A stretch of DNA of 64,000 bases, taken from NCBI GenBank assembly GCA_038202885.1, contig JBBREP010000001.1:25350-89349 (forward strand), in the 5' to 3' direction. The notes beneath the pieces were generated by a model, which made no database searches, was not told where the DNA came from, and saw only the letters and a list, made by a program, of their open reading frames with translations. The DNA is from Acidimicrobiia bacterium. GTDB lineage: Bacteria; Actinomycetota; Acidimicrobiia; IMCC26256; PALSA-610. The position numbers and the translations under genes were made by a program. Below, piece by piece: positions 4,074-39,396 of the stretch (the first letter of the stretch is position 1; each line of letters opens with the position of its first letter).

Positions 4074-5684
4074 TTACACGCGCGGAGCCCCAGATTTGCG
4101 CATCAACGAGGTGAGGCCCCCAAGTTCGGGGGTCCGCAGCCCCCACAGCACGAATGTGTACACCACACCCGCGATCGCGATCGCGAGCACAGTGGGCGCG
4201 ATCGCACCACCGGCGACGCGGCCGATGGCCAGTGCGGCGAGTGTTGCCAGTGTGGCTGCGGCGATGGTGCGCGCGGTCAGCGAGCCGACAGGGGCAAGGG
4301 GGAAGCCGCCCAGTCGGCGATAGAGCAAGATCATGGCGATCAGTGCGGCGAGCGCATACGCGAGCGCGAACGCCAGCGCCAGTCCGCGCACGCCGAAGTG
4401 GGGGTAGAGCACGAGCGCGAGGATGACGTTGGCGCCGTTTTCGACGCAGTTGACGATGAACGGCGTTCGGGCGTCCGACATCGAATAGAACGCGCGCAGC
4501 GTATAGAGATACGCCGAGAACGCCACGAGGCCGACGGCGAATCCCGACACAGCGCGCGCGGTGTCGGAAATCGCGGCCGAGCTGAAGGTGCCGTGGTGCA
4601 GCACCGGATCGATGATGGGCCGAGCGAGCGCGATGAGGAGCGCCGCGGCAGGCACAGTCGCAAGCAGGAGATAGCGCAGCCCGAGCGTGTACTCGCGCCG
4701 CAACGTGGGCAGATCACGCTCGCGAGCCGCCGTCGCGAGTTGCGGTGCGATCGCCGTCATGATCGACACCGCAATGAGTCCGTGCGGCAGTTGGAAGAAT
4801 GTGTAGGCGTACGTGTATTCGGCGAACACGCCGTTGCGGTTGCGGCTCAACGCAACGACGAATGCAAACGCGAGTTGGTTTGCGACGACGTAGCCGACCG
4901 TCCAACCCGACATGCGGGCGATGCGCGTCACCGCTCGATGCCGCCACGCGAACGTGATTCTCGTGTGCACGCCCGCGTGGTGCAACGCGGGAATGAGCAC
5001 CGCGGCCATCGCGACAATTCCCGCCGTCGTGCCCACGCCAAGCGCGAACACCACACTGTGATTGTGGGCCGCGTGGTCGAGGCAGGCGTCGAAGGCGTCG
5101 CTGCGCTTCGTGCGACACGATGGCAGCGATGGGCGCACCGCGAGCAACACGATCACGACGACGACGTTGTTCAAGACGGGAGCGAACGCTGCCGCGGTGA
5201 AGCGTCGACGAGCATTGAGCGCGGCCGTTGCGAGCGCGGTGTACGCGTAGAAGATCATCTGCGGCAAGAACAACGCCACGAGCAGCGTGCCGACCGATTC
5301 CGCTTGGGCGCGCTGCGCCGGCGGAACGCGGCTTGACAGCGCCGCGGTGATCGCAGGCGCCAACAGCATCGCGATGCCGGTGAGCAACAGCACCGCGGTG
5401 AGCGCGACCGTGAAGATCGCGTTCGTCGCGGAGTCGTCGTGCTCGGCGTGGGCATCGACGAACACCGGCACGAGCGCCGCGGTCAGCACGCCCCCAAGGA
5501 GCAGTTCGTACACGATGTTGGGTGTGGAGTTCGCGACGTTGTAGGTGTCGGCGAGGCCCGCCGCGCCCAGCACCGACGCGGTGATCGCGACGCGCACAAC
5601 GCCGGTGATACGCGACGCCATGGTGCCCGCGCCCACAATGGCCGAACGGCGCGCGAGCCGTTGTGTTGCGTCGATGTCGCTCAC
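4074..5684 (-). CDS. murJ: Lipid II flippase MurJ/MviN
   Basis: Polytopic protein whose N-terminal motif RSAIVGAGTMASRITGVVRVAITASVLGAAGLADTYNVANSTPNIVYELLLGGVL is typical of MurJ. The GTG at 5684 overlaps the upstream stop (GTGA). The ORF could nominally extend to 5762. Confidence 0.85.
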   Translation of the reverse strand: MSDIDATQRLARRSAIVGAGTMASRITGVVRVAITASVLGAAGLADTYNVANSTPNIVYELLLGGVLTAALVPVFVDAHAEHDDSATNAIFTVALTAVLLLTGIAMLLAPAITAALSSRVPPAQRAQAESVGTLLVALFLPQMIFYAYTALATAALNARRRFTAAAFAPVLNNVVVVIVLLAVRPSLPSCRTKRSDAFDACLDHAAHNHSVVFALGVGTTAGIVAMAAVLIPALHHAGVHTRITFAWRHRAVTRIARMSGWTVGYVVANQLAFAFVVALSRNRNGVFAEYTYAYTFFQLPHGLIAVSIMTAIAPQLATAARERDLPTLRREYTLGLRYLLLATVPAAALLIALARPIIDPVLHHGTFSSAAISDTARAVSGFAVGLVAFSAYLYTLRAFYSMSDARTPFIVNCVENGANVILALVLYPHFGVRGLALAFALAYALAALIAMILLYRRLGGFPLAPVGSLTARTIAAATLATLAALAIGRVAGGAIAPTVLAIAIAGVVYTFVLWGLRTPELGGLTSLMRKSGAPRV

Positions 5685-7807
5685 TCGGCGGCCCTGCGGC
5701 GCCGGAACACGTGATGGGCCCACCACAGCGCGAGAAACGCGAGCGCGCCATAGGTGAGCCACGTACCGAACGAGCCGAAGACCCTGGAGTTGACCGTGAC
5801 GCGCGCGGGCTGACCGATCGGAAGCCCGCCCTTGATCGACGTCATCAACACCGACACCACAAAGCGGCCCGACGTTTTTACGTGCACGGCGAGACTCGCG
5901 GTGTGATTGCCCGTCGCGGGCAACGTGACGTCTTCGCTGCGGTGCACCTGATCGAGTTTGTTGCTGAGAAGCCGCACGCGGATGCGCACGGCATGGCCGG
6001 TGTCGTTCGTGAACGTGATGGGGATGCTCGTATTCGCGGCCGTGACCGTGACGCTGCGCGCCGACGCGTGAATACCGGCGCTGAAATCGGTGACCATCGT
6101 GTCGATGACGCCGAGGCGCCGCAACACGTCGCTGGGATCGGCGAGGGCCGACATCGATACGAGCAGCGACCGCTGCGATGCTGCGAGCTGTTCGTCGGGC
6201 GGACCGACGAGAAGACTCTCATAGCCCAGGAGCGAGCGAGCCGTTGCCTGAAGTGCTGCGGTCGGCACCGCGAACGGGCGCGGCGTGCGGCGTGCGAACT
6301 GGCGAACGAGGGGCCCTCCGCTGCCGTCGTTGCCGCGGGTGACCTCGGCGAAACTGTCGGAGAGCGTCGTGGCGTGCAGCAGCGGGTCGTCGTGCAGCGC
6401 CCGAGCGAAGGCAACGATCATCGCCCGGTCTGGCTCCCACTCCGACGCCGACGCGAGCACGACACCGGTGCGGCGCTGCGGTTGGTCGTATGCGAGCAAC
6501 GCCGTCGCGGCGATGAAGCGTTGCATGCGCAACGGTGCGGCGTCGCGTCCGCGTAGCAACCCCGAGAGAAACGAGTCGTCGGTGAGCACGCTGATCGGTG
6601 AACCAGCGACGGTGACCCGTTGATGTTCGAGGGCGGCGTCAACTGGTTCGAGTTCAGTGTCGCGCAGCCCGAGTTGTTCGACGCCGAGGCCCCGGAGCTG
6701 CTGCATGGTTGCGGCGTCGGAGTGATCGAGCCACGCAGTCGAGCGTTCGGGGAACACGCCGACCGCGTTGTGCACCGCAGCTGATTCGAGCGCGAACGCG
6801 TCGTGCACACTGTTGGGGAAACCCGCGTCGTTCACTGCTTTGACGTCGAGTGGTACCCACGGCGACAGCACGAACTGTGGGTCGACGCGTCGCACGGCAC
6901 CCTGAAAATTGGAGAAGGCCCGTGCGGTTCCCGGGTCGTGTTGTGCGGTCGCGCGCCAGGCCGTAAGTGTTTCACCCGACGCCGCGACGGTGATCGGCAT
7001 TGAGCCGGCCGCGTCAAGGGCTGCGGCAACTCGGGCGAGTCGCCCATGTTCGGCGAAAGCGTTGCGCGTCCGGTCGGTCAACGCGCCGTCGACGCCGAGG
7101 GGCGACGTCGCGACCTGCCACACCCAAGTGACGTTGACTCCGACAGGTTGCGCACCTGAGACCGCGACGACCCAGGTGACGAACGAGTCGACCATCGGAC
7201 AATTGATGCACTGCACGAGCGGTGCGGCGTTGGCGAGCGGGCGACAGGTGGCACAGCGCACGAGGTGAACGTCGAGTGCGTAGACGCCGGCTTGGATGAG
7301 CTTCAAGGTGCGTGCGAGCGGTCGCTCGCCCCGCTGTTGCAGCGGAAACGAGATCCGCAGGCTGCCGTCGGAGTCGGTGGGAATCTGCGTGAGATCGGCG
7401 GTGACGGGAGTGTCGTCGAGATGCCGTGGGAGCTCGTCGTTCGTGATGGCGTCGTCGAACGCCAGGCTGCTGGGTGTTGCCTCGTGGAGCGCGACTTGTA
7501 CGGCCGCGCGGCTCGGCGCGTTCGCCACGTGCACCCGCAACACGAGCGCGGGCGCGCCGAGTTGGAGCAACGGTTGCTGGCGTACGAGCGCGATCGACGG
7601 CGCACCCGGCTTCGCGGTCGACGACGCCGTCCCGGGGGCCGCGGTGGCACTTGTTGTCGTGGTCGGGGTCGAGGCCGCGGATTCGGCGGCCGCGCCAGCG
7701 TCGGGCGCGACCACGCCCATGGCGACACTCGCGGCGAGCAACAGCGCGACGCAGAGCAACGCAGTGGCTGAGCAGCACGCGCGCCACTGGGTTCGAGGAG
7801 GGGTCAC
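5681..7807 (-). CDS. Large secreted, C-terminally anchored protein of unknown function (Rv3909-like position upstream of murJ)
   Basis: 708 aa with a GTG start. It has an N-terminal signal/TM segment (ALLCVALLLAASVAMG) and a C-terminal TM segment (WLTYGALAFLALWWAHHVF). It is translationally coupled to murJ. Confidence 0.6.
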   Translation of the reverse strand: MTPPRTQWRACCSATALLCVALLLAASVAMGVVAPDAGAAAESAASTPTTTTSATAAPGTASSTAKPGAPSIALVRQQPLLQLGAPALVLRVHVANAPSRAAVQVALHEATPSSLAFDDAITNDELPRHLDDTPVTADLTQIPTDSDGSLRISFPLQQRGERPLARTLKLIQAGVYALDVHLVRCATCRPLANAAPLVQCINCPMVDSFVTWVVAVSGAQPVGVNVTWVWQVATSPLGVDGALTDRTRNAFAEHGRLARVAAALDAAGSMPITVAASGETLTAWRATAQHDPGTARAFSNFQGAVRRVDPQFVLSPWVPLDVKAVNDAGFPNSVHDAFALESAAVHNAVGVFPERSTAWLDHSDAATMQQLRGLGVEQLGLRDTELEPVDAALEHQRVTVAGSPISVLTDDSFLSGLLRGRDAAPLRMQRFIAATALLAYDQPQRRTGVVLASASEWEPDRAMIVAFARALHDDPLLHATTLSDSFAEVTRGNDGSGGPLVRQFARRTPRPFAVPTAALQATARSLLGYESLLVGPPDEQLAASQRSLLVSMSALADPSDVLRRLGVIDTMVTDFSAGIHASARSVTVTAANTSIPITFTNDTGHAVRIRVRLLSNKLDQVHRSEDVTLPATGNHTASLAVHVKTSGRFVVSVLMTSIKGGLPIGQPARVTVNSRVFGSFGTWLTYGALAFLALWWAHHVFRRRRAAE

Positions 7808-13757: not shown

Positions 13758-14129
13758 TTGCCGATCGTGCGGCGCGAGATCGACTACTCGCTCGCCCGTC
13801 GCGCTGTGGTCCGTGATTACCAGCGCGGCGCGCTCGCGAAGCCCGATGTGTGCGATGCACACCCCGAACTACTGCGCGCCGCCCGCAACCTCGGCCGGGC
13901 GTGCGACGCCGAGTGCCCGATCTGCGGTGCCGACGCAACGCTGCGGCGGGTCTCGTACGTCTATGGCGACGGTGCCAAGGCCCCGTACGGGCGGGCCGTC
14001 GCCAGCGCGGCCGAACTCCGCAAGCTGGGGCGCACCCACGACGAACTGCGCTGTTATGACGTCGAGGTCTGCCTCGAGTGCTCGTGGAACTACATGCTGC
14101 GCACCTACCTCATCGGCCGCACCGGCTGA
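13758..14129 (+). CDS. DUF5318-family Cys-rich small protein
   Basis: REIDYSLARRAVV...VCDAHPELLRAARNLG...CPICG...VEVCLECSWNYMLRTYLIG matches my memory of the actinobacterial DUF5318 pattern. Start is TTG 13758 or GTG 13767. Confidence 0.7.
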   Translation: MPIVRREIDYSLARRAVVRDYQRGALAKPDVCDAHPELLRAARNLGRACDAECPICGADATLRRVSYVYGDGAKAPYGRAVASAAELRKLGRTHDELRCYDVEVCLECSWNYMLRTYLIGRTG

Positions 14130-14139
14130 CCCCCCTTTT

Positions 14140-14192
14140 CGGTTTTCCTCTGCACCACGCGGCGTGTAGGGCCGTCAGGTGCAATCAGACCG
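14140..14192 (+). repeat. 53-nt conserved element, copy A (10 nt after the DUF5318 stop)
   Basis: CGGTTTTCCTCTGCACCACGCGGCGTGTAGGGCCGTCAGGTGCAATCAGACCG. It is 49/53 identical to the reverse complement of 39485-39537. Confidence 0.9.
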
Positions 14193-14350
14193 GTGTGCCC
14201 GGCGATCGGCCGCCGCGATGTGACGTCGGCGACGTGTCGAGGTGCAGCTGAGCCGCGACTGAACCTCGGACTGTACGGAGGGGGTTTCGGTCTGTATCGT
14301 TTGGTGTGACGCCGGGAGCCGAGTGGCCCTGGACGTTGGAGGTGAATGCG

Positions 14351-15241
14351 ATGACCACCGCAGAGTCCTCGGTCGCGACCCGTCGCCCGATCACGGCACC
14401 AGGGGTCGCGTCCCGCAAGGGCGGACCGACACCATTGGTGATGGTGACTGCATACGACGCGCCGTCGGCCAGAGTCGTCGATGGGGCGGGTGCCGACATG
14501 ATCTTGGTCGGCGACTCCGTCGCCATGGTCGTGCTTGGTTACGACGACACGATGCAGGTCACGATCGACGACATGGTGCACCACGTGGGTGCTGTGGCGC
14601 GGACGAAGCCGTCGGCGCTGATCGTGGGCGACCTGCCGTGGATGAGCTACCACCTCGATCGCTCCGACGCGGTCCGCAATGCCGCCGCGCTCGTGCGCGC
14701 CGGCGCGGGAGCCGTGAAGCTCGAGGGAGGACGCAAGCGCCTCGATGTCGTGCACGCCATCCTCGACGCCGAAGTTCCGGTGATGGGCCACATCGGCCTG
14801 ACGCCGCAGTCACTCTTGGCCCTGGGCGGTTTCAAGGTGCAGGGCAAGCAGCTCGACGCCGCGCACACGATTGTCGAAGATGCCATCGCGCTGGCCGACG
14901 CCGGCTGTTTCGCCGTGCTACTCGAATGCGTGCCCGACGGTGTGGCGCGCATGGTGACCGACTCGATTGGTGTGCCGACCATCGGTATCGGCGCCGGTCG
15001 TCACTGCGACGGTCAGGTGCTCGTGTACCACGACCTGCTCGGCATGTGCGGCCCTGGTCGCAAGGCGCCGAAGTTCGTTCGCCGGTACGCCGACCTGGAA
15101 ACGAGTGCCCTCGAGGCCGTGTCCGAGTTCGTCGACGACGTGCAGTGCGGGCGGTTCCCGTCCAGCGCCGAGACGTACCACATGGCCGACGGCATGAACC
15201 AAGGCCTAGGCCTCTACGGGGTAAGCGCCGCCTCGGTCTGA
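14351..15241 (+). CDS. panB: 3-methyl-2-oxobutanoate hydroxymethyltransferase
   Basis: LVMVTAYDAPSARVVDGAGADMILVGDSVAMVVLGYDDT and VKLEGG are typical PanB sequence. ATG 14351 is preceded by GGAGG. Confidence 0.9.
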   Translation: MTTAESSVATRRPITAPGVASRKGGPTPLVMVTAYDAPSARVVDGAGADMILVGDSVAMVVLGYDDTMQVTIDDMVHHVGAVARTKPSALIVGDLPWMSYHLDRSDAVRNAAALVRAGAGAVKLEGGRKRLDVVHAILDAEVPVMGHIGLTPQSLLALGGFKVQGKQLDAAHTIVEDAIALADAGCFAVLLECVPDGVARMVTDSIGVPTIGIGAGRHCDGQVLVYHDLLGMCGPGRKAPKFVRRYADLETSALEAVSEFVDDVQCGRFPSSAETYHMADGMNQGLGLYGVSAASV

Positions 15242-15521: not shown

Positions 15522-15857
15522 ATGCGGCCTTACGAGGTCATGATCATTCTCGACGCCGACCTGGAAGAGGAGGCGATCCGAGGTTCGGTTGCGAAGTGGC
15601 TCAGCTTGATTGAGTCACATGGCGCCGTCCGTGGGTACGTCGATTTCTGGGGCAAGCGTCGCCTCGCCTACGAGATCAACCATCGGGCCGAGGGCTACTA
15701 CGTCGTCCTGCAGGCCAAGTCCGAACCAGCGGCGATGGAAGAGCTCCACCGGGTCCTCTCCCTTGCAGATGAAGTCATCCGCCACAAGGTGCTGCGCATT
15801 CCCGAGTCGGTCTACGGGCCGCCGGCGTCTGCGTCGGGTGCCGTCGCGGCGGAGTAG
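15522..15857 (+). CDS. rpsF: 30S ribosomal protein S6
   Basis: MRPYEVMIILDADLEEE...RRLAYEINHRAEGYYVVL. An AAGGAGG RBS is present. Confidence 0.93.
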   Translation: MRPYEVMIILDADLEEEAIRGSVAKWLSLIESHGAVRGYVDFWGKRRLAYEINHRAEGYYVVLQAKSEPAAMEELHRVLSLADEVIRHKVLRIPESVYGPPASASGAVAAE

Positions 15858-15876
15858 GCGTCGCGAAGCGACGCCT
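15856..15876 (+). other. Intercistronic stem-loop between rpsF and ssb
   Basis: AGGCGTCGC-GAA-GCGACGCCT forms a 9-bp perfect stem that begins inside the rpsF stop codon. Confidence 0.6.
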
Positions 15877-17432: not shown

Positions 17433-17632
17433 CTATCCACAGGTAGTCGCGCGCGCTTTTCCACAGGACTATCCACAGGCAACTACCCGGTTGCCCGGCA
17501 CGGCCGGCGCCATCCCGCGGACGTGTCCGAAGCCCGGTACACAATGCCTGTGGAGGAGTCGGTCGGTTGCCCACAGGTTCTCCGCAGCGAAGTTGCGGAT
17601 ATCCCCGGCTTTGCCCACTTACTCCCCACAGG
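17433..17632. promoter_or_regulatory. Cluster of CCACAGG / DnaA-box-like motifs in the rplI-dnaB intergenic region
   Basis: CTATCCACAGG at 17433 and 17469. TTTTCCACAGG at 17457. CCTGTGGAGG (reverse orientation) at 17547. TTGCCCACAGG at 17567. TTGCCCAC at 17611. CTCCCCACAGG at 17622. Confidence 0.6.
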
Positions 17633-17675
17633 ACCGCCATGAGATCGTGATGGCTCAGGGGAAAGGGTTTGCCGC

Positions 17676-19043
17676 GTGGTGCAGTTCTTCGAAGAAGCGC
17701 GGCAACGCCGCGTCGCGGATGGTGGTCGGATCCCGCCGCACAACATCGAAGCCGAGGAGTCGCTCCTCGGTGCCATGATGTTGACCCGTGACGCGATCAC
17801 CGCGGCCATCGAGGTTCGCATCGAAGCGCACGACTTCTACAAGCCGGCGAACGGTCATCTGTTCACGGCCGCGATTTCGTTGCACAACCGCGGCGAGGCC
17901 GTCGACCCGGTCACCGTGGCCGAATATCTGCGGCGCGACGGGCTGCTCGAGCCGATCGGCGGGCAGCCGACGCTCTTGCGCATCCAGGCCCAAACCCCGG
18001 CGTCGGCGAACGCGGGTGAATACGCCAACATCGTCCATGAGCTCGCGCTGCTCCGCAAGCTGATCGCGGTCGGTGGCGACATCGCCGAGATGGGCTACGC
18101 GGGCACCGAAGACATCGACATCACGCTTGACTCGGCCGAGGCCATGGTGTTCGAGATCGCCGAGCACCGCGTCGGCGATTCGTTGGTGTCGCTGTATCCG
18201 ATTCTCGAAGCAACGATGAACGAGCTCGAACAGCTCTACGACCGCGACAGCAGCGTCACGGGGGTGCGAAGCGGTTTCCGCGACCTCGACGAGTTGCTGC
18301 TCGGCTTCCAACGATCCAACCTCATCGTGCTCGCGGCCCGACCTGGCCAGGGCAAGACGTCGTTGGCGCTCGGCGCGGCGCTGCACGTCGCGCTCGAGGA
18401 CCGCAAGCCGGTGTTGTTCTTCTCGATGGAGATGGACCGGCTCGACCTCACGCGTCGATTGCTCTCGTCCGAAGCGCGCATCAACGCGCGTGACCTCCAG
18501 ACCGGCCGCCTCGCCGAAGGCGATTGGCCGAGGCTGAACCAGGCCGTTGGTCGTCTGGCCGAGGCGCCGTTCTTCATCGACGACGACCCTCGGTGCACGG
18601 TCATGGAAATGCGCGCCAAGGCGCGCCGCATCAAGGCCCAGTACGGCGATGTCGGATTGATCGTCGTCGACTACCTCCAACTCATGTCGACGAACAAGCG
18701 GATCGAGAGCCGCCAAGTCGAAGTGTCGGAGTTGTCGCGTGGCCTGAAGATCCTGGCGCGCGAGATGCAGGCGCCGGTGCTCGCACTGTCGCAGCTCAAC
18801 CGTCAGCTCGAATACCGCACCGACAAGCGGCCGATGCTGGCCGACCTGCGAGAGTCGGGTTCGATCGAACAAGACGCCGACGTCGTGATGTTCATCTACC
18901 GAGACGACTATTACAACACCGAGTCGGATCAGCGCGGCGTGGCTGAGATCATCGTCGGCAAGCACCGAGGTGGCCCCACCGGCACGGTCCGGCTCGCCTT
19001 CCTCGACAAGTTCACCAAGTTCGCCAACATGGCCAGGGATTAA
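17676..19043 (+). CDS. dnaB: Replicative DNA helicase DnaB (no intein)
   Basis: Has PPHNIEAEESLLGAMML, Walker A ARPGQGKTS, IVVDYLQLM and ALSQLNR. 455 aa. Confidence 0.93.
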   Translation: MVQFFEEARQRRVADGGRIPPHNIEAEESLLGAMMLTRDAITAAIEVRIEAHDFYKPANGHLFTAAISLHNRGEAVDPVTVAEYLRRDGLLEPIGGQPTLLRIQAQTPASANAGEYANIVHELALLRKLIAVGGDIAEMGYAGTEDIDITLDSAEAMVFEIAEHRVGDSLVSLYPILEATMNELEQLYDRDSSVTGVRSGFRDLDELLLGFQRSNLIVLAARPGQGKTSLALGAALHVALEDRKPVLFFSMEMDRLDLTRRLLSSEARINARDLQTGRLAEGDWPRLNQAVGRLAEAPFFIDDDPRCTVMEMRAKARRIKAQYGDVGLIVVDYLQLMSTNKRIESRQVEVSELSRGLKILAREMQAPVLALSQLNRQLEYRTDKRPMLADLRESGSIEQDADVVMFIYRDDYYNTESDQRGVAEIIVGKHRGGPTGTVRLAFLDKFTKFANMARD

Positions 19044-19151
19044 TGGGAACGGGAGCCATGCAGCTCGCAGCGCCGGACAGCGAGCGAAGCGTCCCGAAGG
19101 GCGGCGTCGCGGAGCAGCCGAGCCGAGCGAGCAAGTAGATACGTAGGCGCA

Positions 19152-19814
19152 TTAGAAAAGCGTCAAGCGGTCCGCGTCGGCGGCGTCGCGGTATTGGGCG
19201 AGGTCGACCTCGATGCATTCGATGCCCTTGCTCGCGGCGTACACGCGGGCCTGCGGCTTGATGCGTTCGGCGACGAACATACCGACGGTGGGTGCGAACC
19301 GCGAGTCGAGGTCGAGGCGTTCCTGGTACCGCAACAGCTGATCGACCCCGGCGATCTCGCCGACGCGTTTGATCTCGATCACCACTGTGCGTCCCGCCCC
19401 GTCGCGGCACAGCAAGTCGACCGGGCCGATGTCGGTCGGGTATTCGCGCCGGATCAGTTCGAGGTCGGCGCGCAGGTCTTGGACGCGCGCGGCGAGGGCT
19501 ACCTGCAGTTCGGCCTCGACGCCGTCCTTTTCGAGCCCGGGATCGTCGCCCAACGCGAATGTCTGGTCGAACAGCACTTCGTGCAGCGTGATCACGAGCG
19601 ATTCGCCCTTGGGCGTGTCGGCGCGGATCGCACCGTCGCGCTCGACAATCGTGCACGGAGGGTTCATCCAGTTCAGAGGCTTGTACGCCTTGGCGTCGGA
19701 GTGCACCGCGATCGAGCCGTCGCCCTTCAGCACGATGAGGCGCAGTGCCTCACCGAGACGCGCACCGAGACGGCCTTGGTATTCGACTCCGCAGCGAGCG
19801 ACGATGATCCGCAC
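19152..19814 (-). CDS. nucS: Endonuclease NucS (EndoMS)
   Basis: MRIIVARCGVEYQGRLGA...KAYKPLNWM...VVIEIKR, the typical NucS pattern. GTG start. Confidence 0.9.
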   Translation of the reverse strand: MRIIVARCGVEYQGRLGARLGEALRLIVLKGDGSIAVHSDAKAYKPLNWMNPPCTIVERDGAIRADTPKGESLVITLHEVLFDQTFALGDDPGLEKDGVEAELQVALAARVQDLRADLELIRREYPTDIGPVDLLCRDGAGRTVVIEIKRVGEIAGVDQLLRYQERLDLDSRFAPTVGMFVAERIKPQARVYAASKGIECIEVDLAQYRDAADADRLTLF

Positions 19815-19854
19815 GGTCCCGAGTCTGTCATGGGTGTCCCGCTACCGTCGCCGT

Positions 19855-20580
19855 GTGCACACGGTCGACCGGCGTCGCGGCCGCGCGCCCCGGGGGTTGG
19901 CCCTGGCGACGGTGTGCGTCGCGATCACGATGGCGACGGCAACCTGCTCGGGCGGGTCGAGCGCGCACGCGCCGACGTCGTCGACGACGGGCTCCGATGA
20001 GGTGTTGCGTTCCTTGGTGGCAATCGCCGCCCGTGGCGATACCCACGAGTCGCGCGTCGTGTACTCGGTCGTCCGAACGGCGGGTGGTCAAGACGCTCGG
20101 AGTATGGAGATCGAGTGGTATCGCCCTTCGCCGCGTCTTGTTGCCACCGTCGAGGGTGGCGAGCTCAACATCGAACGCGCCGGTGTCGAGACGAACTGCA
20201 CGCCCCGACCAACACCGAGGACATGCACCCGGATCGGTCCGGCCGAGCACGGTGCCGCCTCGAGCGCCGACCCCTATCTCGTGGCCGTCCGATCGAATCG
20301 CTATTCGGTCAGCGTTGGCGCCGATCGCAACATCGTCGGTGCCCGCGCGCGATGTTTTCGCCTTGCGCTGCGTGTCGGGCAGCCGCTGATCGTGGGGCTC
20401 GGCTACAGCTCGGAGACGTGTTTCGCTGCCGACGGCGTCGTGGTCCGGACTGAGCGTGACGCGCCGGGTGGTACCGAAACGGCGGTGGCGATTGCTGTCG
20501 AACGCTCCGTGCGCTGCGCCGAACTGCGACGCGTGTGGCGCGATTACGGCACGACCGACCTCGCCGACCCATGCCGTTGA
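19855..20580 (+). CDS. Putative lipoprotein, unknown function
   Basis: From GTG 19855 there is a basic N-region, a hydrophobic core and a lipobox-like TATCSGG. No recognisable domain. Confidence 0.5.
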   Translation: MHTVDRRRGRAPRGLALATVCVAITMATATCSGGSSAHAPTSSTTGSDEVLRSLVAIAARGDTHESRVVYSVVRTAGGQDARSMEIEWYRPSPRLVATVEGGELNIERAGVETNCTPRPTPRTCTRIGPAEHGAASSADPYLVAVRSNRYSVSVGADRNIVGARARCFRLALRVGQPLIVGLGYSSETCFAADGVVVRTERDAPGGTETAVAIAVERSVRCAELRRVWRDYGTTDLADPCR

Positions 20581-20606
20581 CGATGCGCCTTCTACGCTGA
20601 GCGGCC

Positions 20607-20888
20607 GTGGACTTCTACGGCGAAGTACTCCAGGAGCTCGTGGTGGCGTTGGGCGCCGCGCTGCTCGTTGCCAATGTGGCCGCACTCATTCGGCGGCGGC
20701 GAGATCGTGACACCGCGGCGCAACGCAAGATCGCGAAGTCGCGGCCGGGCAGTCCGGTCCGGCGTCTCGGCCAAGCCGACGGCCACGGCGACCTGCCGGT
20801 GGCGCCGTTTGCCCGCACCGTCACCTATGCCGCGGTGGGCCTGGTCGTGATGGTGTGGGGTGTGGCGTCGATCGTGGGCGGGCGCTGA
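20607..20888 (+). CDS. Small two-TM membrane protein
   Basis: 93 aa. Hydrophobic segments are LVVALGAALLVANVAALI and YAAVGLVVMVWGVASIVGG. Confidence 0.4.
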   Translation: MDFYGEVLQELVVALGAALLVANVAALIRRRRDRDTAAQRKIAKSRPGSPVRRLGQADGHGDLPVAPFARTVTYAAVGLVVMVWGVASIVGGR

Positions 20889-20933
20889 GCGCCGAAACAT
20901 CAAGACCGAGGGTGACTCGGCCGATATGCGAGT

Positions 20934-22427
20934 GTGTACAACTCGGGGACCGAGGCGAAATGCAGCCCTCGTTCCCGCTGGGCACGCGCGGCCCTCGCGC
21001 TGGGCCTTGTGCCGGCGGCAGCGTCGTGCGCCTACCTCACGCCCCGTCCGAGTTTCGGTCGTGGCGCCGGCGCGACGCATGTCTCAGCGTCGACGAGTGC
21101 TGCTTCTGGGAAGCGCGTGGTTCCGCGCGTGCACGACGACACTCGCTGGCAAACCTTCGTACCCGTCGCGGCCGACTTCACTACGACGTACTGGGTAACG
21201 GCATCGGGCGCTGACACTGCGCCGGGCTCGATCGACGCGCCCTGGCGCACGCTGCAACACGCCGTCGATGCCGCGACTCCAGGCGCGCGGATCCTCATTG
21301 GCTCAGGAACCTATACGGGCTTCCGGATGACGACGAGCGGTGGGCCCGGGACGCCGACCGTGATCGCCGCTGGTCCGGGCGCCAATGTTGCAGTCACCGC
21401 ACCGCTCGCGAGCGGTGACGTGATCGACCTCGTTGCCGTCCATGATGTGGCCGTTCGTGGGATCACAGTGCGCGGCGCGCGCGGGAACTGGCGTGCGGGC
21501 ATCCTTGTACGCGACGGCGCGACGCGGGTCGAGATCAGCGACGATGTAGTCACCGACAACGCCGACTACGGCGTGCGGATTATCGATGCGACCAACGTTG
21601 AGGTCACCCGTGACGACATCAGCCACAACGGTGCGGGTGTCATTGTCGAACGGGCTGGGTCGGGCGTTCACATCCACGCCAACATCGTGCACGACAACGA
21701 TCGCATGATTGTCAACGACGCCGCGCCCGGCAACGATACGGGCGCGATGGGGATCGTGTTCCAATTCGCGACCGGCCCGGTCACCGCGGACCACAACGTC
21801 ATCTTCGCCAACCGGGCGCAATCACACGACTTCGGCTACGACGGCTCGGGCTTTGAAATCTTCGGGGCCGCACACGTGACGATGGCTTCGAACGTGCTGT
21901 ACGACAACGAGGCCGTGCTTGAGACCGGCACCGATGGCCCGGACTGCGTCGGAAACCGCTTCGAGGGCAACGTCGCGTGGGGCCCCGGCCACGCGACGGT
22001 CGACGTGCAGGTGCCGCAGTCGAATGGCGTGCTGTTGCGATGCGCGACGTCGATGGTGGTCGAACACAACACGCTGTATGACCTTGATGGGTTCGCGGTG
22101 TGGTTCGACGCCAGCAACGCCGCGATGGGCGGGGTCGCGGGCCTGCGCGTCAGCGACAACCTGCTGGTGCAACCGAGCTCACCCGTGTACGAACTCGACA
22201 GTTCGCTGCCGAACACGGTGACCGTCGATGCCAACGACGTCGTCGGCCGAGGCGCAATGCTCGCGCGGATCGTGGGCCAGGATGCGCCGACCAACCTCGC
22301 TGAACTCCAGCACGCGCTCGGCTTCGACATGCACGGCGTGTCGATCGAGCCGGTGTTCGCGTATCAGGCCGGCTATGACCTGCGCGCGATGAGTCCCGCA
22401 GTGCGCGGGCGTTACGGCGCGACGTGA
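20934..22427 (+). CDS. Secreted right-handed parallel beta-helix repeat protein (probable lipoprotein)
   Basis: Has a signal peptide with lipobox AAASC, APWRTLQHAVDAATPGARILIGSGTY, and repeated units of about 23 aa with N/D-rich turns (VTDNADYGVRI, ISHNGAGVIV, VHDNDRMIV, VLYDNEAVL). Confidence 0.65.
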   Translation: MYNSGTEAKCSPRSRWARAALALGLVPAAASCAYLTPRPSFGRGAGATHVSASTSAASGKRVVPRVHDDTRWQTFVPVAADFTTTYWVTASGADTAPGSIDAPWRTLQHAVDAATPGARILIGSGTYTGFRMTTSGGPGTPTVIAAGPGANVAVTAPLASGDVIDLVAVHDVAVRGITVRGARGNWRAGILVRDGATRVEISDDVVTDNADYGVRIIDATNVEVTRDDISHNGAGVIVERAGSGVHIHANIVHDNDRMIVNDAAPGNDTGAMGIVFQFATGPVTADHNVIFANRAQSHDFGYDGSGFEIFGAAHVTMASNVLYDNEAVLETGTDGPDCVGNRFEGNVAWGPGHATVDVQVPQSNGVLLRCATSMVVEHNTLYDLDGFAVWFDASNAAMGGVAGLRVSDNLLVQPSSPVYELDSSLPNTVTVDANDVVGRGAMLARIVGQDAPTNLAELQHALGFDMHGVSIEPVFAYQAGYDLRAMSPAVRGRYGAT

Positions 22428-23221
22428 ATCGCTTCGGACCACGAACAGGCGGCGGCACGAGCGACGGGAATCGCCGACGGTGTCGACGAGCCGCAGTCGG
22501 TGCCGAGCATGTCGTGTAACACCACGGGATCGAGGATCAACTCCGGTCGGTGATCGGCCGGGCCGCTGTCCTCGAGCGCGATCGTCGTGCGCGCCTTGGG
22601 GAACGGAACAACGACGTGTGCGGTGGCGCCGCTCGACAGGTACGCGCTCGACCACAGCGGCACCTCACGGTTGCCGCGGCGTTCCACGACGGTGACCGGT
22701 CCTGAGCGCGCGGTGGTGATGGCGATGCTCACCTGTCGTGCCGTCACCGTGTCGACCGCGACCTGGGCGGGCGTCGTGATGGCGTCGTCGGCCGCCTGAT
22801 ACGCGAGCGCGATGCCGACGGCAACGATGGTCGCGCCGATCACTGCAAGCAGCACCGTGTGCTGCCCGATGTCGTCCACGGCGGGCAGCCGCGGTTGCAC
22901 GTCGATCTGGCGCCACATCGCTGCGGCCAGAACTGCGGTGGCGACGACACCCCAGGCGATACTCCATGACGCGCGCGTCAAACCCCACGGCAGCGCGTCC
23001 AGTAGGTAACCCATTGCGATCAGCGCGGCGATCGTCGAGGCAATCGCGAGTACCCAACGTCGCAGTGGGTCACCGGTGGCGAGCATGGTGATGAGCCGTA
23101 CCGTCACCACGAGCGATGCCGCGCCGAGCGGCGCCGCGACGAGTGGGTGCGCAGACGCGACGCCGCAGATTGCCGCGAACGCGATGATGGCGAAGATAGA
23201 GACTTGGTCACGAAGACGCAT
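22412..23221 (-). CDS. Polytopic membrane protein with C-terminal external domain (last gene of the glycan operon)
   Basis: 269 aa with about 5 TM helices. The ATG at 23221 overlaps the upstream gene by 14 nt. Confidence 0.5.
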   Translation of the reverse strand: MRLRDQVSIFAIIAFAAICGVASAHPLVAAPLGAASLVVTVRLITMLATGDPLRRWVLAIASTIAALIAMGYLLDALPWGLTRASWSIAWGVVATAVLAAAMWRQIDVQPRLPAVDDIGQHTVLLAVIGATIVAVGIALAYQAADDAITTPAQVAVDTVTARQVSIAITTARSGPVTVVERRGNREVPLWSSAYLSSGATAHVVVPFPKARTTIALEDSGPADHRPELILDPVVLHDMLGTDCGSSTPSAIPVARAAACSWSEAIHVAP

Positions 23222-25052
23222 TGATGCCTCGGATGTCGTAGACGATGACGGCGCCGTTGTCGTAGATCCGCGCCACGCCGGGGATGTTGTCGAACTTCGT
23301 CAGAGCGACGCGCGTGACGGGGAACTTGTGCGCGTAGCTCGCGTCCTCGCCCTGCTCCAGGTAGACGCCGACATGCGGCAGCCCCGTCGACATACGCACA
23401 TCGACGACCAGGTACTGGATCCGACCCTTGCGAATGAGCGCAAGGTCGTTGGGGGTCGGCGAGTGGTCGAAGAACACTCGGGAGGCATCGATGTTGTCAC
23501 CGACGTGCGTGACGCTGTATGACGTGCCGATCGCGGCAGCGAGAAGCCGACCGATGCGGTCCGACAACACCCTGCTGTTCGGCGGGAGGTGCTGACCGAT
23601 CCACTCGGCCGTCGCCACGTTGTAACGATCGACCGTACGATTGTCGGCCGACACGAGGTACGGCCCGGGCATACGCAGCCAACTTGGCCCGAATCCGGTC
23701 AGGACGCCGCCGACGAACATGAATGTGAGCACGAGCGTGATCGCGACGGTCCAGTCGCGCGTCCGATGCAAGAGCACGACGCCGGCCCACCATGCGAGCG
23801 CGAAGCCGACACCGACGAAGATCAGTCCTGTCGAACGGTCAGCGAACTCCGAAGTAGCGAGCGTGAGGTGCCCGATGGGCAAGAGTGGGAACGCGGCCGC
23901 GGTGACGAGCAACGCAATGGCGCGCGAGTCGCGGCGCTTGAACCACGCGCGACCCTTCCATAGGGCGGGGAGGAGCAACAGCCCGATCAGCGCGAGTGAC
24001 GACACCGACCAGATGCGCTCCCACAGCGCGGCCGTGCTGCCACCCCCGTCGACGAACAATTTGTGGTTACTGCTGCCCGTGATGAACGCGTTGATCTGTT
24101 CGCCGGAACCTTTCAGCGCGCTGCCGACGTAGCGCATCACGATCGTGCCTGGGAACAGCGTGTACAGACCGAGCATTGCCGTCGCGGCCGCGGCCACAAT
24201 GCCGTACAGGTGCGACTCGCGGTTGTAGCCGCGCGCGACGCGCTCGACTCTCCACAGGACGAAGACGGCACCAACGAACGCAAGCCCCATCAGGTGGTGG
24301 CTCACTATCGCGGCGCCTCCGATGGCGATGGCCGGGAGCACCGCGCGGCGATGGCGCGGGTGCGAGCGGTCGACGAGGAGATACACGGCTGCGAGCGCGA
24401 GCGGCAGTGCGAGGGACTGGTACGAGAATTGCGAGTTGAAAAAGAGATACTGCGGGTTCGCGGCGTACACGAGTGCAGCTATGGCAGCAACGCGCTCGGA
24501 ACCCGTCAGCCATTCCACAAACGCGATGAGCGCGAGCGTGGAGAGCACGCGTGCGAGGACGAGGACGATGACGCCACTGGTATGCCCGGTGAGGCCGGTG
24601 AGCGACGACACCGCGTGCGTGACGATCTCGAGACCGGGGTAATAGCGAACGACCGGCAGGGTCGATGTTGCATGGAACAGTCGGTGGGTCGATGTGAGTA
24701 GTCGCAGCGCCTCGACGTGGACCAACTCGTCGTGATACACGAAGAACTTCGGGTAGAGCACGACTTGACTGAACACCGCGGCGGCGCCGAGCACGAGCGA
24801 CAACGTGATGCGCTCGCGCCGCACAGTGTCGCGACCGACGATACGGAATGCGCAGGGCACGAAGATGATGATGAGGCTGATCCAGAACAGTGGCGTGGCG
24901 TACCAGTGCTCGTGCCGGCTGGCTATCCCTGCGAGCGCGTGGAGGAACAACCCGACGCACACGGACAGGATGGCCCACCCGGTGAGGTCGCGCTGGGGCG
25001 ATCGTGCCCGGCGGAACAGTTCCTGAAGGCCGGCTTCATCCTCGAGCAACAT
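23208..25052 (-). CDS. GT-C-fold-like polytopic glycosyltransferase candidate
   Basis: 614 aa from ATG 25052 (RBS GGAAGGA). It has more than 10 TM helices, a first-loop motif YHDELVH resembling the DE motif of PMT/ArnT-type enzymes, and a C-terminal soluble domain. Confidence 0.55.
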   Translation of the reverse strand: MLLEDEAGLQELFRRARSPQRDLTGWAILSVCVGLFLHALAGIASRHEHWYATPLFWISLIIIFVPCAFRIVGRDTVRRERITLSLVLGAAAVFSQVVLYPKFFVYHDELVHVEALRLLTSTHRLFHATSTLPVVRYYPGLEIVTHAVSSLTGLTGHTSGVIVLVLARVLSTLALIAFVEWLTGSERVAAIAALVYAANPQYLFFNSQFSYQSLALPLALAAVYLLVDRSHPRHRRAVLPAIAIGGAAIVSHHLMGLAFVGAVFVLWRVERVARGYNRESHLYGIVAAAATAMLGLYTLFPGTIVMRYVGSALKGSGEQINAFITGSSNHKLFVDGGGSTAALWERIWSVSSLALIGLLLLPALWKGRAWFKRRDSRAIALLVTAAAFPLLPIGHLTLATSEFADRSTGLIFVGVGFALAWWAGVVLLHRTRDWTVAITLVLTFMFVGGVLTGFGPSWLRMPGPYLVSADNRTVDRYNVATAEWIGQHLPPNSRVLSDRIGRLLAAAIGTSYSVTHVGDNIDASRVFFDHSPTPNDLALIRKGRIQYLVVDVRMSTGLPHVGVYLEQGEDASYAHKFPVTRVALTKFDNIPGVARIYDNGAVIVYDIRGINASS

Positions 25053-26361
25053 GATCGGGTTCCTTCCCGAGAGTGTCCTGGCGCAGGATCCTTCGCACCA
25101 TGAATCTGGTCGTGAATAGCGAGACGATCGACTGTCCGACGAGCCATCCCAATGCGGGTGCGCACACGCCGATGTGGTGCACCAACAGCGCACCAGTACC
25201 GATGGTGAAAATGCACACGACACCGTTGATCACCGCGACCCACTTCGTGCGTCCGGTGACGCGCAGCACGCCCACGGCCACGTTGTTGAGGGCCCGAGGG
25301 ATGCACGCGAGGCCCATGAGGCGAATCACCCACGCTCCCGCGCGCGCGTATCCCGGTCCGTACACCTCTAGCGCGAACGGCGCGATCACGACCGCTGCGA
25401 TACTCAGGGGCACCATGACCGCGAACGTGTGGCGCAACGCCGATCGCAGCAGGTCCGGAAGTCGGTCACGGTCGCGCGCGCCCTCGACGGTGAGGGCCGT
25501 GGCCATGTTCAACGCCAACAGGTCGATGGTGAGCGCCGACGTCCATGCCAACGCGAAGTAGCCGGTCTCCTTGCTGCCCACCCATTGCAGCATCAACGCA
25601 GGTACGAGCGCGGCCGACGCGTAGTTGAACAACGAGGCCACATAGTCGGGCCCGGCGAAGCGGGCGGCTTCGGGCAGCGCCAAGGTCTCGGGCCGGGCGC
25701 TTGACGCGGTGTGAATCAGGCGCCGGAAGATGAGCACGTTGATCGGGATGAGCGACGCCAGCGCGCCGATCACCCACGGTGCGAACACGCCCATCGCGCC
25801 ACCAGCGGCCGCGAATACGACGAGCAGCGCGAGCTTGACGACACCGAAGATGGCGTTCTCCACGGGGACCCAGTGCGCGCCGCGCAGCGCGGTGAGGGCC
25901 GCGTCTTGCAAACTGAACACGGTCCAGCCGACAGCGGCCACTACGAAGAGCGGCGCAAGGAATCGACTGGTTTGGAGCGCACCCGCGCCGACGCGATCGT
26001 CGTAGGCCACGTAGCCGATCGCAACGAGCAACGTGAGCGTGCACGTGACGCCATACGAGAGACGCAGCGCGCGTGCCCTGCGCTCGTCCAGTACCGGCAA
26101 GTAGCGCCCGAGGAAGCTGATCATGTTGAGTTGGCTGATGCCGCTCACGAAGAGCATGGCGCTGATCACGGCGGTGGCTCGTCCGACATCGCGCGCGTCG
26201 TAGAGCCGGGCTGCCGCGATCCAGAACAACACGCCGAGGACGGCCGTGAGGCCGGTGTTGAGCATCAACGAATAGGCCGCGTGCAGCAGCGGGCTGCGTT
26301 CGGCGATTGCCGCCCAGCGGCGTTCGTTCGTGGGGGCCGACGCCTCGACGCGCAGTGTCAT
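25036..26361 (-). CDS. Polysaccharide/oligosaccharide flippase (MOP/Wzx-like)
   Basis: 441 aa from ATG 26361 (ATGA overlap). It has about 12-14 TM helices and a polysaccharide-biosynthesis-protein-like N-terminus (LLHAAYSLMLNTGLTAVLGVLFWIAAARLY). Confidence 0.65.
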   Translation of the reverse strand: MTLRVEASAPTNERRWAAIAERSPLLHAAYSLMLNTGLTAVLGVLFWIAAARLYDARDVGRATAVISAMLFVSGISQLNMISFLGRYLPVLDERRARALRLSYGVTCTLTLLVAIGYVAYDDRVGAGALQTSRFLAPLFVVAAVGWTVFSLQDAALTALRGAHWVPVENAIFGVVKLALLVVFAAAGGAMGVFAPWVIGALASLIPINVLIFRRLIHTASSARPETLALPEAARFAGPDYVASLFNYASAALVPALMLQWVGSKETGYFALAWTSALTIDLLALNMATALTVEGARDRDRLPDLLRSALRHTFAVMVPLSIAAVVIAPFALEVYGPGYARAGAWVIRLMGLACIPRALNNVAVGVLRVTGRTKWVAVINGVVCIFTIGTGALLVHHIGVCAPALGWLVGQSIVSLFTTRFMVRRILRQDTLGKEPDHVARG

Positions 26362-27569
26362 GACGGGTTCGCCGATCCGAGCACGCGCTCGTAGAACGTG
26401 CCCATCCGGTTGGCAGCGGCAGCGATCGTGAAGTGATCGCGGAACCGTCGTTCGGCGGCGTCGATACACGCGGCGACGCGCGGTCCGCCGTCGAGCGCGT
26501 CGTCGAGCGCGGTTGCGAGCGCGCCGGGGTCGTCGGTGCGCACGTAGTGAAAGGCGGTCACATCAAGCGCCTCCACGAGCGGCTCGATGCGCGAGGCAAC
26601 GACGGGAAGGCGCAACGCCATCGCCTCGAGTGCGGCCCCGCCGAACCCCTCCCAGCGCGAGGGGTACGACAACACGTCGGCTGCACACATCAGATCGGGT
26701 ACGTCGCTGCGATGACCGAGCAGCCGTACCGATGGGCCGACCGACGTGGCGAGTTGCTCGACCAGCGCGCTCGCTGTGTCGGCGCCGCCGGCGATGAGGA
26801 GTACGGCGTCGGGTCGGCGTTCGCGCAACATTGCGAAGGCGCGGATCGAGGTGTCGACTCCTTTTTGGTCGGCGAGTCGAGCGGGCGCGAGCACGACGGG
26901 CGTTCCGCCAGGTATGCCCAGCGACGCTCGGACCTCAGCGCGTCGCCGGGGTGACGGCGTACCCAGGCGCGCTTCGTCGCGGCCGCGCCACACCACGTCG
27001 ACGCGTTCGTCGGGCACATGCAGCCGCTTCGCCATCGTGCTTGCGATCGAGGCCGACACCGATTGGAATCGCCGAACCAGTCGGGCCGTAGCGATGTCGC
27101 AGCCGTGGACGCCGCGCACCGCGAGCCGTCCGTAACTCGACGTGGCGCGATGCTCAGGGCCGTACGTCAGGTTCGCCAAGGTGGAAACGACCGGCACGTT
27201 GGCCGCGCGCGCCGCGGTGCGGCCGCACAGGTCCGCCCACAGCAACGTCGTGTGCACGACGTCGGGTCGGCGCGCCCGGATCAGCGAGCGCAGGCTCACA
27301 ACCCGGCGGACGGGTCGCGGCCCACTCAGCGAGTGGACGACAAAGCCGCGTTCGCGCAGCCGCGCGCGGAGCACGCCGTCGTCGTCGAGCAGCGTTGCGA
27401 CCTCGACCTCGATGCCGAGGGCGCGCAGGTGCGGCGCCACGTCAACGAGCGATTGCTCCGCGCCGCCGCCGCGCAAGTTGTCGATGATGTGCAGCACGCG
27501 CATCGTGCCGCCGGACACCGGCGGCGAGAGGGCGACGTCGCTGCGGCCGAGCAGCGGAGCTGAACTCAT
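26358..27569 (-). CDS. Glycosyltransferase family 4 (GT-B)
   Basis: MRVLHIIDNLRGGGAEQSLVD and a C-terminal EGFGGAALEAMALRLPVVASR (E-x7-E region). Start is 27569 (ATGA overlap) or 27503. Confidence 0.8.
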   Translation of the reverse strand: MSSAPLLGRSDVALSPPVSGGTMRVLHIIDNLRGGGAEQSLVDVAPHLRALGIEVEVATLLDDDGVLRARLRERGFVVHSLSGPRPVRRVVSLRSLIRARRPDVVHTTLLWADLCGRTAARAANVPVVSTLANLTYGPEHRATSSYGRLAVRGVHGCDIATARLVRRFQSVSASIASTMAKRLHVPDERVDVVWRGRDEARLGTPSPRRRAEVRASLGIPGGTPVVLAPARLADQKGVDTSIRAFAMLRERRPDAVLLIAGGADTASALVEQLATSVGPSVRLLGHRSDVPDLMCAADVLSYPSRWEGFGGAALEAMALRLPVVASRIEPLVEALDVTAFHYVRTDDPGALATALDDALDGGPRVAACIDAAERRFRDHFTIAAAANRMGTFYERVLGSANPS

Positions 27570-29626: not shown

Positions 29627-30468
29627 CGGTGCGGCCTTCCGGTGGATGCGGCGCGGCCGCCGAGGTGGCGGGCGCGGCGCACTTGGCGCCACGGCGTTGC
29701 GGCGACCTGCTTCGCCACACGTTCGGCGCGCGCCGCCTGTCCTTGCGCGAGCAGAAGTACGTGCGAGGCAGAGTGTTGGCCGCGCACGATCAGGCGCCGG
29801 ACCGCGAAGCGATCGGCGGCAACAGGATGGCGATCGTGGCCGATGATGCACGCCGACTCGAAACCGGCGTCGCGTACGGCGCCGCGGGTCGAGGTTCCGG
29901 CATAGCCGTTGGGGTACGCGAAGCTCGTCGCGTCGATGCCGAGCCGGTCACCAAGTACTTCGCGACTGCGCCGCAGCTCTGCGGTGACGACGGCGGGGAG
30001 TTCGAGGTCGAACGGATGGTGCTCGTGGCCGTGCGAGCCGATCTCGATGCCGGCGTCGCGCATCGCGGCCAGCTCGTTCCAGCTGAGCAAACGTTGGCGC
30101 CCGAGTTCGCCGCGGATCCACGTGGCGCGTCCGCCCACGTGCGCCGTCGGCACGTACATCGTCGCTGACCATCCCAGGCGTTGCAAGATTGGGAGCGCAA
30201 ATTCGGTGAACCCGCCGAAGGCGTCGTCGAAGCTCAGCGCGACGACGTTGGTGATGTCGTCGCCTGCGTCGATGCGCCGGAGGGCCTCGGTGACGCCGAC
30301 ACCGTGCCAGCCATACGCGTGCAGCGCAGAAACGTGCTCGTCAAAGGTCGCGACCGATACCTCGAGGTCACCGCGCACGCGCTCGATCGAGCCAGTCACC
30401 CGGTGGTACAGCAACACGGGCAAGCGCGCCGACTGTGTTACTGCTGCTGATGTTGGCGTCGATGTCAT
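29623..30468 (-). CDS. Polysaccharide deacetylase (NodB homology domain)
   Basis: Has LPVLLYHRV, LSFDDAF, GSHGHEH and FAYPNG. Confidence 0.8.
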   Translation of the reverse strand: MTSTPTSAAVTQSARLPVLLYHRVTGSIERVRGDLEVSVATFDEHVSALHAYGWHGVGVTEALRRIDAGDDITNVVALSFDDAFGGFTEFALPILQRLGWSATMYVPTAHVGGRATWIRGELGRQRLLSWNELAAMRDAGIEIGSHGHEHHPFDLELPAVVTAELRRSREVLGDRLGIDATSFAYPNGYAGTSTRGAVRDAGFESACIIGHDRHPVAADRFAVRRLIVRGQHSASHVLLLAQGQAARAERVAKQVAATPWRQVRRARHLGGRAASTGRPHR

Positions 30469-30545
30469 GCGTTCATCCGTGCTGCGGGTCGATCATCCAT
30501 GGAGCGTTGTGCGAGCCGCGTCCCGCGGTGCGCAGGCGAAACACG

Positions 30546-31331: not shown

Positions 31332-31470
31332 CCTGTGCTCCCGCCCGCCACCACCGGTGACCCAGGTGCGGCAATTGAGCCGCACGATAGCGGCGAATGC
31401 CACATTCAGGCAAAGCGCGACCGCGAAGTGTGGCAATTGTTGGCCGGCCGTCCCGCTCGATGTCGCGGCG

Positions 31471-31512
31471 CCGGACGGAGTAGGCGCAGGGAGACCGGAC
31501 GGAGTAGGCGCA
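31471..31512. repeat. Tandem pair of the 18-nt repeat CCGGACGGAGTAGGCGCA (24-bp period)
   Basis: Perfect copies lie at 31471-31488 and 31495-31512, in a divergent intergenic region. Confidence 0.9.
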
Positions 31513-31593
31513 CAAAACTCTGCCCACTACGGTGTCGCCGCGAACTCCAACGCCCGATACGACCGATTTCGACGGCTTCGAGAGGTGCACGAG

Positions 31594-33018: not shown

Positions 33019-33086
33019 CGTGACCATCGCGCCGCTGCGCCCCGCAATAGCCGCTGGTCCCGCCCCCAGTCCCGTCCCCAGTCCCA

Positions 33087-33128
33087 ATGCGTCGTTTGGG
33101 GGTCATATACACCCCCGAAACGACGCAT
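33087..33128. terminator. Hairpin between convergent genes (candidate bidirectional terminator)
   Basis: ATGCGTCGTTTGGGGGT-CATATAC-ACCCCCGAAACGACGCAT forms a stem of about 17 bp with one bulge. Confidence 0.5.
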
Positions 33129-33134
33129 CGGCGA

Positions 33135-35308: not shown

Positions 35309-35342
35309 CGCGTCACCTCTCGTTCCGAGGCGAGGATACCCG

Positions 35343-37094: not shown

Positions 37095-37140
37095 GTTCAG
37101 CTCTATCGACGTGTGCGGAGGGAGTCTTGCACGATTTCGG

Positions 37141-39333: not shown

Positions 39334-39379
39334 CCCAGCTGGCCTGGGGCCCAGTGAGCTGACCCAGCTGGCCTGGGGC
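39322..39379. repeat. Perfect 29-bp tandem duplication
   Basis: CCAGTGAGCTGACCCAGCTGGCCTGGGGC occurs twice. The first unit contains the stop codon of the small ORF. CCAGCGGC-CG-CCAGCGGC follows. Confidence 0.95.
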
Positions 39380-39396
39380 CAGCGGCCGCCAGCGGC

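Follow-up and report, generated by a model that had tools for sequence, protein, structure and literature searches.

The window analyzed here, a 64-kb stretch of DNA with 65-70% GC from an uncultured actinobacterium, carries the 53-nt sequence CGGTTTTCCTCTGCACCACGCGGCGTGTAGGGCCGTCAGGTGCAATCAGACCG at two places, each time shortly behind the stop codon of a gene. Which kind of element recurs in this way? The original prediction had left three options open, namely a 3′ UTR or sRNA element, a protein-binding DNA site, and a small repeat. Since the element is missing from relatives, from all collections scanned, and from Rfam, the small repeat is favored over a conserved regulatory element. Judged from the sequence, there is about an even chance that the element is a lineage-specific dispersed short repeat, i.e., a GC-rich imperfect palindrome of 53 bp and of the REP/MITE kind that was copied behind two stop codons.

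Copies A and B derive from one sequence

Rechecking of the sequence confirmed the two copies, which lie in inverted orientation and 25.3 kb apart (Table 1). As had been described, they are identical at 49 of 53 positions, the first 30 nt do not differ at all, and the palindrome CACGC-G-GCGTG is present. The differences between copy A and copy B affect element positions 31 (G/C), 38 (A/C), 39 (G/A), and 41 (T/C). All four fall within the last 23 nt (probability 0.03), and the 5′ 30 nt may either be more strongly constrained or have been homogenized. With dinucleotide shuffles, the expected number of chance matches to the 53-mer was 0; on sequence grounds, chance is excluded and the copies share one origin. 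Nor are they an assembly artefact, since they differ at four positions and the synteny across each of them is as in relatives. Searches of the window with blastn-short, with nhmmer, and with an unfiltered covariance model revealed these two copies only. A third covariance-model match of 20 bits (54579-54622) falls within coding sequence, in a Phd/YefM-like antitoxin gene, and a 14-mer match (17671-17684) runs antisense within the N-terminal coding sequence of dnaB; both were attributed to chance.

The placement of the copies was likewise found as predicted, and Pfam supports the identity of both preceding genes. Copy A starts 10 nt past the TGA of the DUF5318 gene (14127-14129) and copy B 25 nt past the TAA of crgA (39565-39563). 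Both are oriented alike with respect to the upstream gene, are no more than 25 nt from its stop codon, and reside in spacers of ~220 nt. The flanks had been called unrelated, which holds in so far as blastn of the 1.2-kb surroundings of copy A against those of copy B returned exactly 53 nt and nothing else of note, with both ends sharp. The left flanks, however, retain a weak residual similarity (43-50% vs. 28% background), because both spacers are C-rich and contain ancestral stop-proximal sequence. For the same two reasons, a 91-nt extension of the inverted repeat (I1) was rejected as part of the unit. Directly after the DUF5318 stop codon, GACCCC is also found in L001, a relative without the element, and AAAACCG in the spacer between crgA and copy B is able to pair with the first 7 nt of the element in an extended fold.

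Table 1. Coordinates of the two copies and of neighboring features in the window.
Feature	Position	Strand	Remarks
DUF5318 gene	13758-14129	+	Pfam PF17249, 1.2e-33; 123-aa product, identical to P0001
C/T-rich spacer, DUF5318 stop to copy A	14130-14139	+	CCCCCCTTTT
Copy A, 53-nt imperfect-palindromic repeat	14140-14192	+	
panB, next gene downstream of copy A	14351-15241	+	Pfam Pantoate_transf, 1.2e-102
Hairpin from two inverted DnaA-box-like motifs	39397-39436		TTGTCCACA / TCGTCCACA; conserved in relatives
Copy B, 53-nt imperfect-palindromic repeat	39485-39537	-	
C-rich spacer, crgA stop to copy B	39538-39562	-	CCCCGCGCCCCAAAACCGCCCCAAC
crgA	39563-39799	-	78 aa; Pfam CrgA, 4.2e-06; P0123 (78 aa), 99% over shared length

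According to Pfam, the window starts with trxB-like, DegV, murJ, DUF6049, deacetylase, PilT-like ATPase, and cca genes, followed by ino1 on the - strand and the DUF5318 gene, whose homologues at 50-58% identity carry the labels Acidimicrobiia or Actinomycetota MAGs. For the region after panB, we infer the order rpsF-ssb-rpsR-rplI-dnaB from the positions and lengths of the ORFs and from synteny with the relative L002. The rplI-dnaB spacer contains four DnaA-box-like motifs (YYNTCCACA) within 125 nt (17433-17557). After dnaB follow nucS on the - strand and an 18-kb glycosyltransferase and envelope cluster. While L002 has a thiolase-family gene (4615-6017) directly after dnaB, ~18.7 kb (19100-37600) separate dnaB from its thiolase in the window, and this interval comprises nucS, glycosyltransferases, MATE-like and PMT-like membrane proteins, and beta-helix, FG-GAP, and trypsin proteins. 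It is probably a lineage-variable envelope-polysaccharide island, with the counterpart thiolases matched by family only. Near copy B, the order is thiolase (+), a small conserved ORF (+, ends at 39333), copy B, crgA (-), and trpG (+); a large ORF on the - strand (41217-43157) is taken to be pknB from the expected synteny. The GC skew does not change sign within the window, and the sole Rfam family found in it is a tRNA-Leu at 48393. Pfam gave a result for 39 window ORFs, without any transposase, recombinase, RAYT, or IS200 domain among them.

Absence from relatives and from sequence collections

Conservation in related genomes, whose absence had been named beforehand as a refuting outcome, was found at neither site in the loci of six relatives, which speaks against a conserved regulatory element. 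For locus A, the nearest relatives are L001, L015, and L002 (87%, 87%, and 75% amino acid identity of DUF5318, respectively), and for locus B they are L004, L006, and L005 (79%, 79%, and 73% for crgA). At the orthologous DUF5318-panB site, the junction is retained and the element missing in 3/3 relatives, and the same applies to the crgA/small-ORF site in the other three. In place of the element, L001 has ~93 nt of unrelated GC-rich sequence. The spacer of L015 comprises only 103 nt, so that the stretch of the element is absent and the DUF5318 stop codon nearly abuts the conserved region upstream of panB. L002 has a 437-nt spacer with a small ORF on the reverse strand (1183-1404), encoding a cysteine-rich protein of 73 aa, which marks the spot of the repeat as a site of repeated lineage-specific gain. 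The spacers upstream of panB are otherwise unalignable; one block directly upstream of the gene (14304-14345) is strongly conserved in four lineages (L001 ~2270-2310, L002 ~1410-1450, and L015 672-712). It reads GTGA(C/T)GCCGGGAGCC(GAG/ACG)(T/G)GGCCCTGGACG..GGAGG, has no Rfam match, and may be a panB leader or regulatory element.

At locus B, the arrangement of trpG, crgA, and the convergent small ORF is retained in L004, L005, and L006. The window and these three lineages have in common two TCCACA motifs, inverted to each other, at some distance downstream of crgA; in the window, this DnaA-box-like pair doubles as a hairpin and, beyond copy B, marks the border of the lineage-specific insert. 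Hairpins directly behind crgA differ between the relatives: L005 has a different strong one (z -3.5), L004 only a weak one, and the GC-rich sequence of L006 no significant fold. The spacer between the small ORF and crgA has furthermore accumulated several small duplications in the window. An exact tandem duplication of 2 x 29 nt (39322-39380; CCAGTGAGCTGACCCAGCTGGCCTGGGGC) spans the stop codon of the small ORF convergent with crgA, and another short tandem repeat follows at 39378-39396 (10 nt x 1.9). Per site, the lineage-specific extra sequence of the window amounts to ~100-118 nt. Only 53 nt of it are common to both sites, and it cannot be shown that precisely these were inserted cleanly. 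Compared with the relatives, the element thus sits in two fast-evolving spacers and is specific to the lineage of the window at both.

Beyond the relatives, a 20-mer from the invariant part was compared with 185,579 GTDB species genomes (596 Gb). The single match, in Xanthomonas, is attributable to chance, as one match is the number expected and its flanks are unrelated. A second 20-mer had no match in the JGI metagenomes. A pattern of the termini with free interior gave eight matches there, all of them chance matches with unrelated interiors and 43-55% GC. Pattern scans of IMG/VR, PLSDB plasmids, and GenBank phages yielded nothing. The covariance-model search of Rfam 15 that the original prediction had proposed found no family over either copy at gathering thresholds, nor any credible match over them at an E-value limit of 10.

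Hairpin structure and possible roles of the element

RNA folding showed that the imperfect palindrome can form a three-tier hairpin. In the gene-sense direction, copy A (+ strand) folds with -24.0 kcal/mol (z -3.4) and copy B (- strand) with -18.7 kcal/mol (z -1.8), its hairpin being weakened by two stem mismatches. Folds of the opposite strands reach -22.5 kcal/mol for copy A (- strand) and -23.1 kcal/mol for copy B (+ strand), with z-values of about -2.5 for both. With DNA parameters, the folds were weak for copy B. A C/U-rich, G-poor tract precedes the element on the sense strand, and UCCUC is exposed in an internal loop. At neither copy was a U-tract following the hairpin or a terminator-like site found. 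It had been noted that TGCACC/GGTGCA pairs in copy A only and that the mismatches are not compensated. This applies to the gene-sense strand; on the opposite strand, both middle-stem substitutions (A-U to G-U and C-G to U-G) lead to G-U pairs. Double-sided compensatory changes are absent from the stems, two sequences being too few for a covariation test.

The element presumably spread by a copy-paste process. Its mover may have been an enzyme acting in trans from a gene beyond the window, much as REP/RAYT or IS200/IS605-type hairpin elements are transposed without leaving a target duplication; a patch of recombination or gene conversion could alternatively have placed the second copy. Persistence of the copies 10-25 nt behind stop codons would then reflect tolerance of insertions at these positions. 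If the element has a function at all, the DUF5318 and crgA mRNAs would carry the hairpin at their 3′ ends. There it could act as a terminator without U-tract after a C/U-rich, G-poor tract, possibly assisted by Rho, or as a barrier against 3′ exonucleases. A 3′ hairpin is the most likely role, if any, because both copies have the same orientation near stop codons and because other hairpins without T-tract are found at gene ends in the window (15856-15876, 33087-33128, and 39399-39434). By this model, the function would probably be a lineage-specific one in ending or stabilizing the DUF5318 and crgA transcripts. More far-reaching readings are possible, albeit unlikely: the copies could belong to a larger, unreported REP-like family moved by a transposase outside the window, or represent a lineage-specific module of terminator or stabilizer hairpins, which might give rise to 3′ UTR-derived or antisense sRNAs with UCCUC as an exposed anti-Shine-Dalgarno-like loop.

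The opposite strand could instead encode a structured RNA that runs antisense to DUF5318 and crgA at their 3′ ends, either as a small cis-antisense RNA or as a hairpin that halts convergent transcription before these genes. RNAalifold gives the reverse strand the better consensus (-21.05 kcal/mol with 17 pairs vs. -15.2 kcal/mol with 15 pairs on the sense strand), where the middle-stem substitutions maintain pairing and both copies reach about -23 kcal/mol. Copy B moreover lies in a convergent spacer downstream of the small ORF on the + strand. However, a transition in a stem always allows wobble pairing on one of the two strands, so the reverse-strand consensus is a hint and no test: the chance that both transitions favor the same strand is about one half, and the two sequences hold no double-sided changes. 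No sigma-70-like promoter was found near the copies and no Rfam family matches them, copy A has no convergent gene against which protection would be needed, and relatives lack the element. We therefore regard an antisense RNA as improbable.

A double-stranded DNA site for a regulator or nucleoid-associated protein, bound via CACGC-G-GCGTG or the TGCACC/GGTGCA arms, would be consistent with the presence of the former palindrome within the invariant 30 nt and with a perfect palindrome in a divergent promoter region (54775-54798) that has the same arm sequence. Still, the 53 conserved nucleotides are much longer than an operator, and palindromes with 5-bp arms are common at 67% GC. The arm spacing is unequal between the sites (22 nt vs. 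4-6 nt), the right arm of copy B is degenerate (AGCGCA), the element is located behind genes and not at promoters, and relatives have the same genes without it. Such a site seems even a little less probable than an antisense RNA.

The palindrome at 54775-54798 deserves a description of its own. It forms a perfect hairpin with a 10-bp stem, CTCTGCACCT-ATGC-AGGTGCAGAG, between a Phd/VapC-like toxin-antitoxin pair (-) and a divergent STAND NTPase gene (+, 54868-58038). Its 9-mer CTCTGCACC and its GGTGCA arm also occur in the middle stem of the element (arm CTCTGCACC/GGTGCAGAG), for which we put the probability of coincidence at 0.01-0.05, a rough estimate made post hoc. The palindrome could be an operator or kin of the stem of the element. 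Nearby, a 59-nt direct repeat with 93% identity (54711-54769 and 57439-57497) arises from a second copy, just upstream of the start of the STAND NTPase gene (1056 aa), of a piece of its C-terminal part; this upstream duplicate ends 5 nt before the palindrome.

As inverted copies, A and B might also be recombination sites around an invertible or mobile segment of 25.3 kb, and as an inverted repeat pair (I1) they are indeed the longest in the window. Such a role is highly improbable, since the segment holds the core genes panB, rpsF, ssb, rpsR, rplI, dnaB, and nucS, since the Pfam results for 39 window ORFs include no recombinase, and since the outer junctions DUF5318/panB and small ORF/crgA have the same order in relatives without the element. 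From these conserved junctions it follows that no inversion occurred and that the copies lie inside ancestral spacers.

The original prediction had also pointed out that both copies are in the same codon phase relative to the upstream stop codon and read VFLCTTRRV(G/A)PS(G/S)AIRP in that phase. Both the phase and the peptide were reproduced; past the two stops, the next stop in this frame comes only after 59 and 81 codons. The coincidence of phase carries no weight, as its probability is 1 in 3. Coding sequence, either as a read-through C-terminal extension or as a small peptide, is the least probable explanation of all, given that long open frames are normal at 67% GC, that the shared frame has no start codon and a GC3 of only 0.59 and 0.71 (vs. 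0.80-0.88 for the window ORFs that passed a gene filter of GC3 > 0.80), that three of the four substitutions between the copies are non-synonymous, and that the products of DUF5318 and crgA end exactly as their orthologues without the element.

Comparison with known repeats and terminators

The dispersed repeat, as the preferred explanation, has its closest counterparts among short palindromic elements of other bacteria. REPs often form inverted pairs 60-100 bp apart. Like REPs and REPINs, the element is a short, GC-rich, imperfect palindrome that is strictly extragenic and found at gene 3′ ends; it is species- or lineage-specific, lacks a target-site duplication, and has single-strand hairpin potential, both copies being GC-rich stem-loop palindromes outside genes. 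Classical REPs carry a GT(A/G)G head at their 5′ end, occur in >100 copies, flank a RAYT gene, and were found only in gammaproteobacteria in one study (PMC2817692). The element, by contrast, starts with CGGT, and its only GTAG (positions 27-30) lies in the apical loop and not in a 5′ head. In the 64-kb window it occurs in two copies 25.3 kb apart, whereas REPs typically number >100 per genome, a high copy number being the hallmark of REP and MITE families alike. RAYTs are IS200/IS605-like Y1 transposases, and the Pfam results for 39 window ORFs include none. The 53-nt unit is also longer, and it belongs to an actinobacterial host.

With MITEs, the element has in common that it is non-coding, short, dispersed, and intergenic, and that its ends form an inverted repeat. 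This inverted repeat is perfect for CGGT/ACCG only and matches at 5/6 positions for CGGTTT/AGACCG; at 4-6 bp, it falls short of the ~10 bp or more that characterize the termini of MITEs. The flanks (TTTT/GTGT for copy A and CAAC/CGGG for copy B) contain no target-site duplication. A length of 53 bp is furthermore at or below the usual lower size limit, and no parent IS was found. Two further candidates were dropped. In integron attC sites, the core sites RYYYAAC ... GTTRRRY bound an imperfect palindrome behind a cassette gene; the element has no GTTRRRY at its 3′ end, and the genes flanking it are core genes. A resemblance to Tn3-like inverted repeats (GGTCTGA) was dismissed as the defining motifs are missing.

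Other parallels relate to gene ends. The U-tract-less terminators proposed for actinobacteria and REP-type stabilizers of mRNA 3′ ends resemble the element in being stable hairpins that begin 10-25 nt past a stop codon. A C/U-rich tract precedes the element, and behind crgA relatives have hairpins of their own in the corresponding position. The imperfect sense-strand hairpin of copy B sets the element apart from such 3′ hairpins. Of the two parts of a canonical intrinsic terminator, the GC-rich hairpin is present and the U-tract is not. Orthologous conservation with compensatory changes, as in a conserved cis-regulatory element or sRNA, was not found in the loci of the six relatives. Within actinobacteria, the mycobacterial MIRUs are intergenic repeats of ~50 nt that form tandem arrays within operons and contain small ORFs overlapping the flanking stop and start codons. 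The element agrees with them in its actinobacterial host, its intergenic position, a length of ~50 nt, and an open frame that keeps the phase of the flanking gene, but its copies are single, without tandem array and start codon.

For this uncultured actinobacterial lineage, our results show at least one short palindromic repeat behind stop codons, in spacers that turn over rapidly. Its importance would reach little beyond annotation, and if the genome has two copies only, it would be a minor duplication. Many copies in the full genome would instead point to a REP-like system in a high-GC Gram-positive lineage, useful as a strain-typing marker and as a handle on the mobilizing enzyme; to our knowledge, REP-like systems are poorly documented in high-GC Gram-positives. 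Measured against the systems compared here, the element is a new repeat of an already known kind, the short intergenic repeats, and as such real but ordinary.
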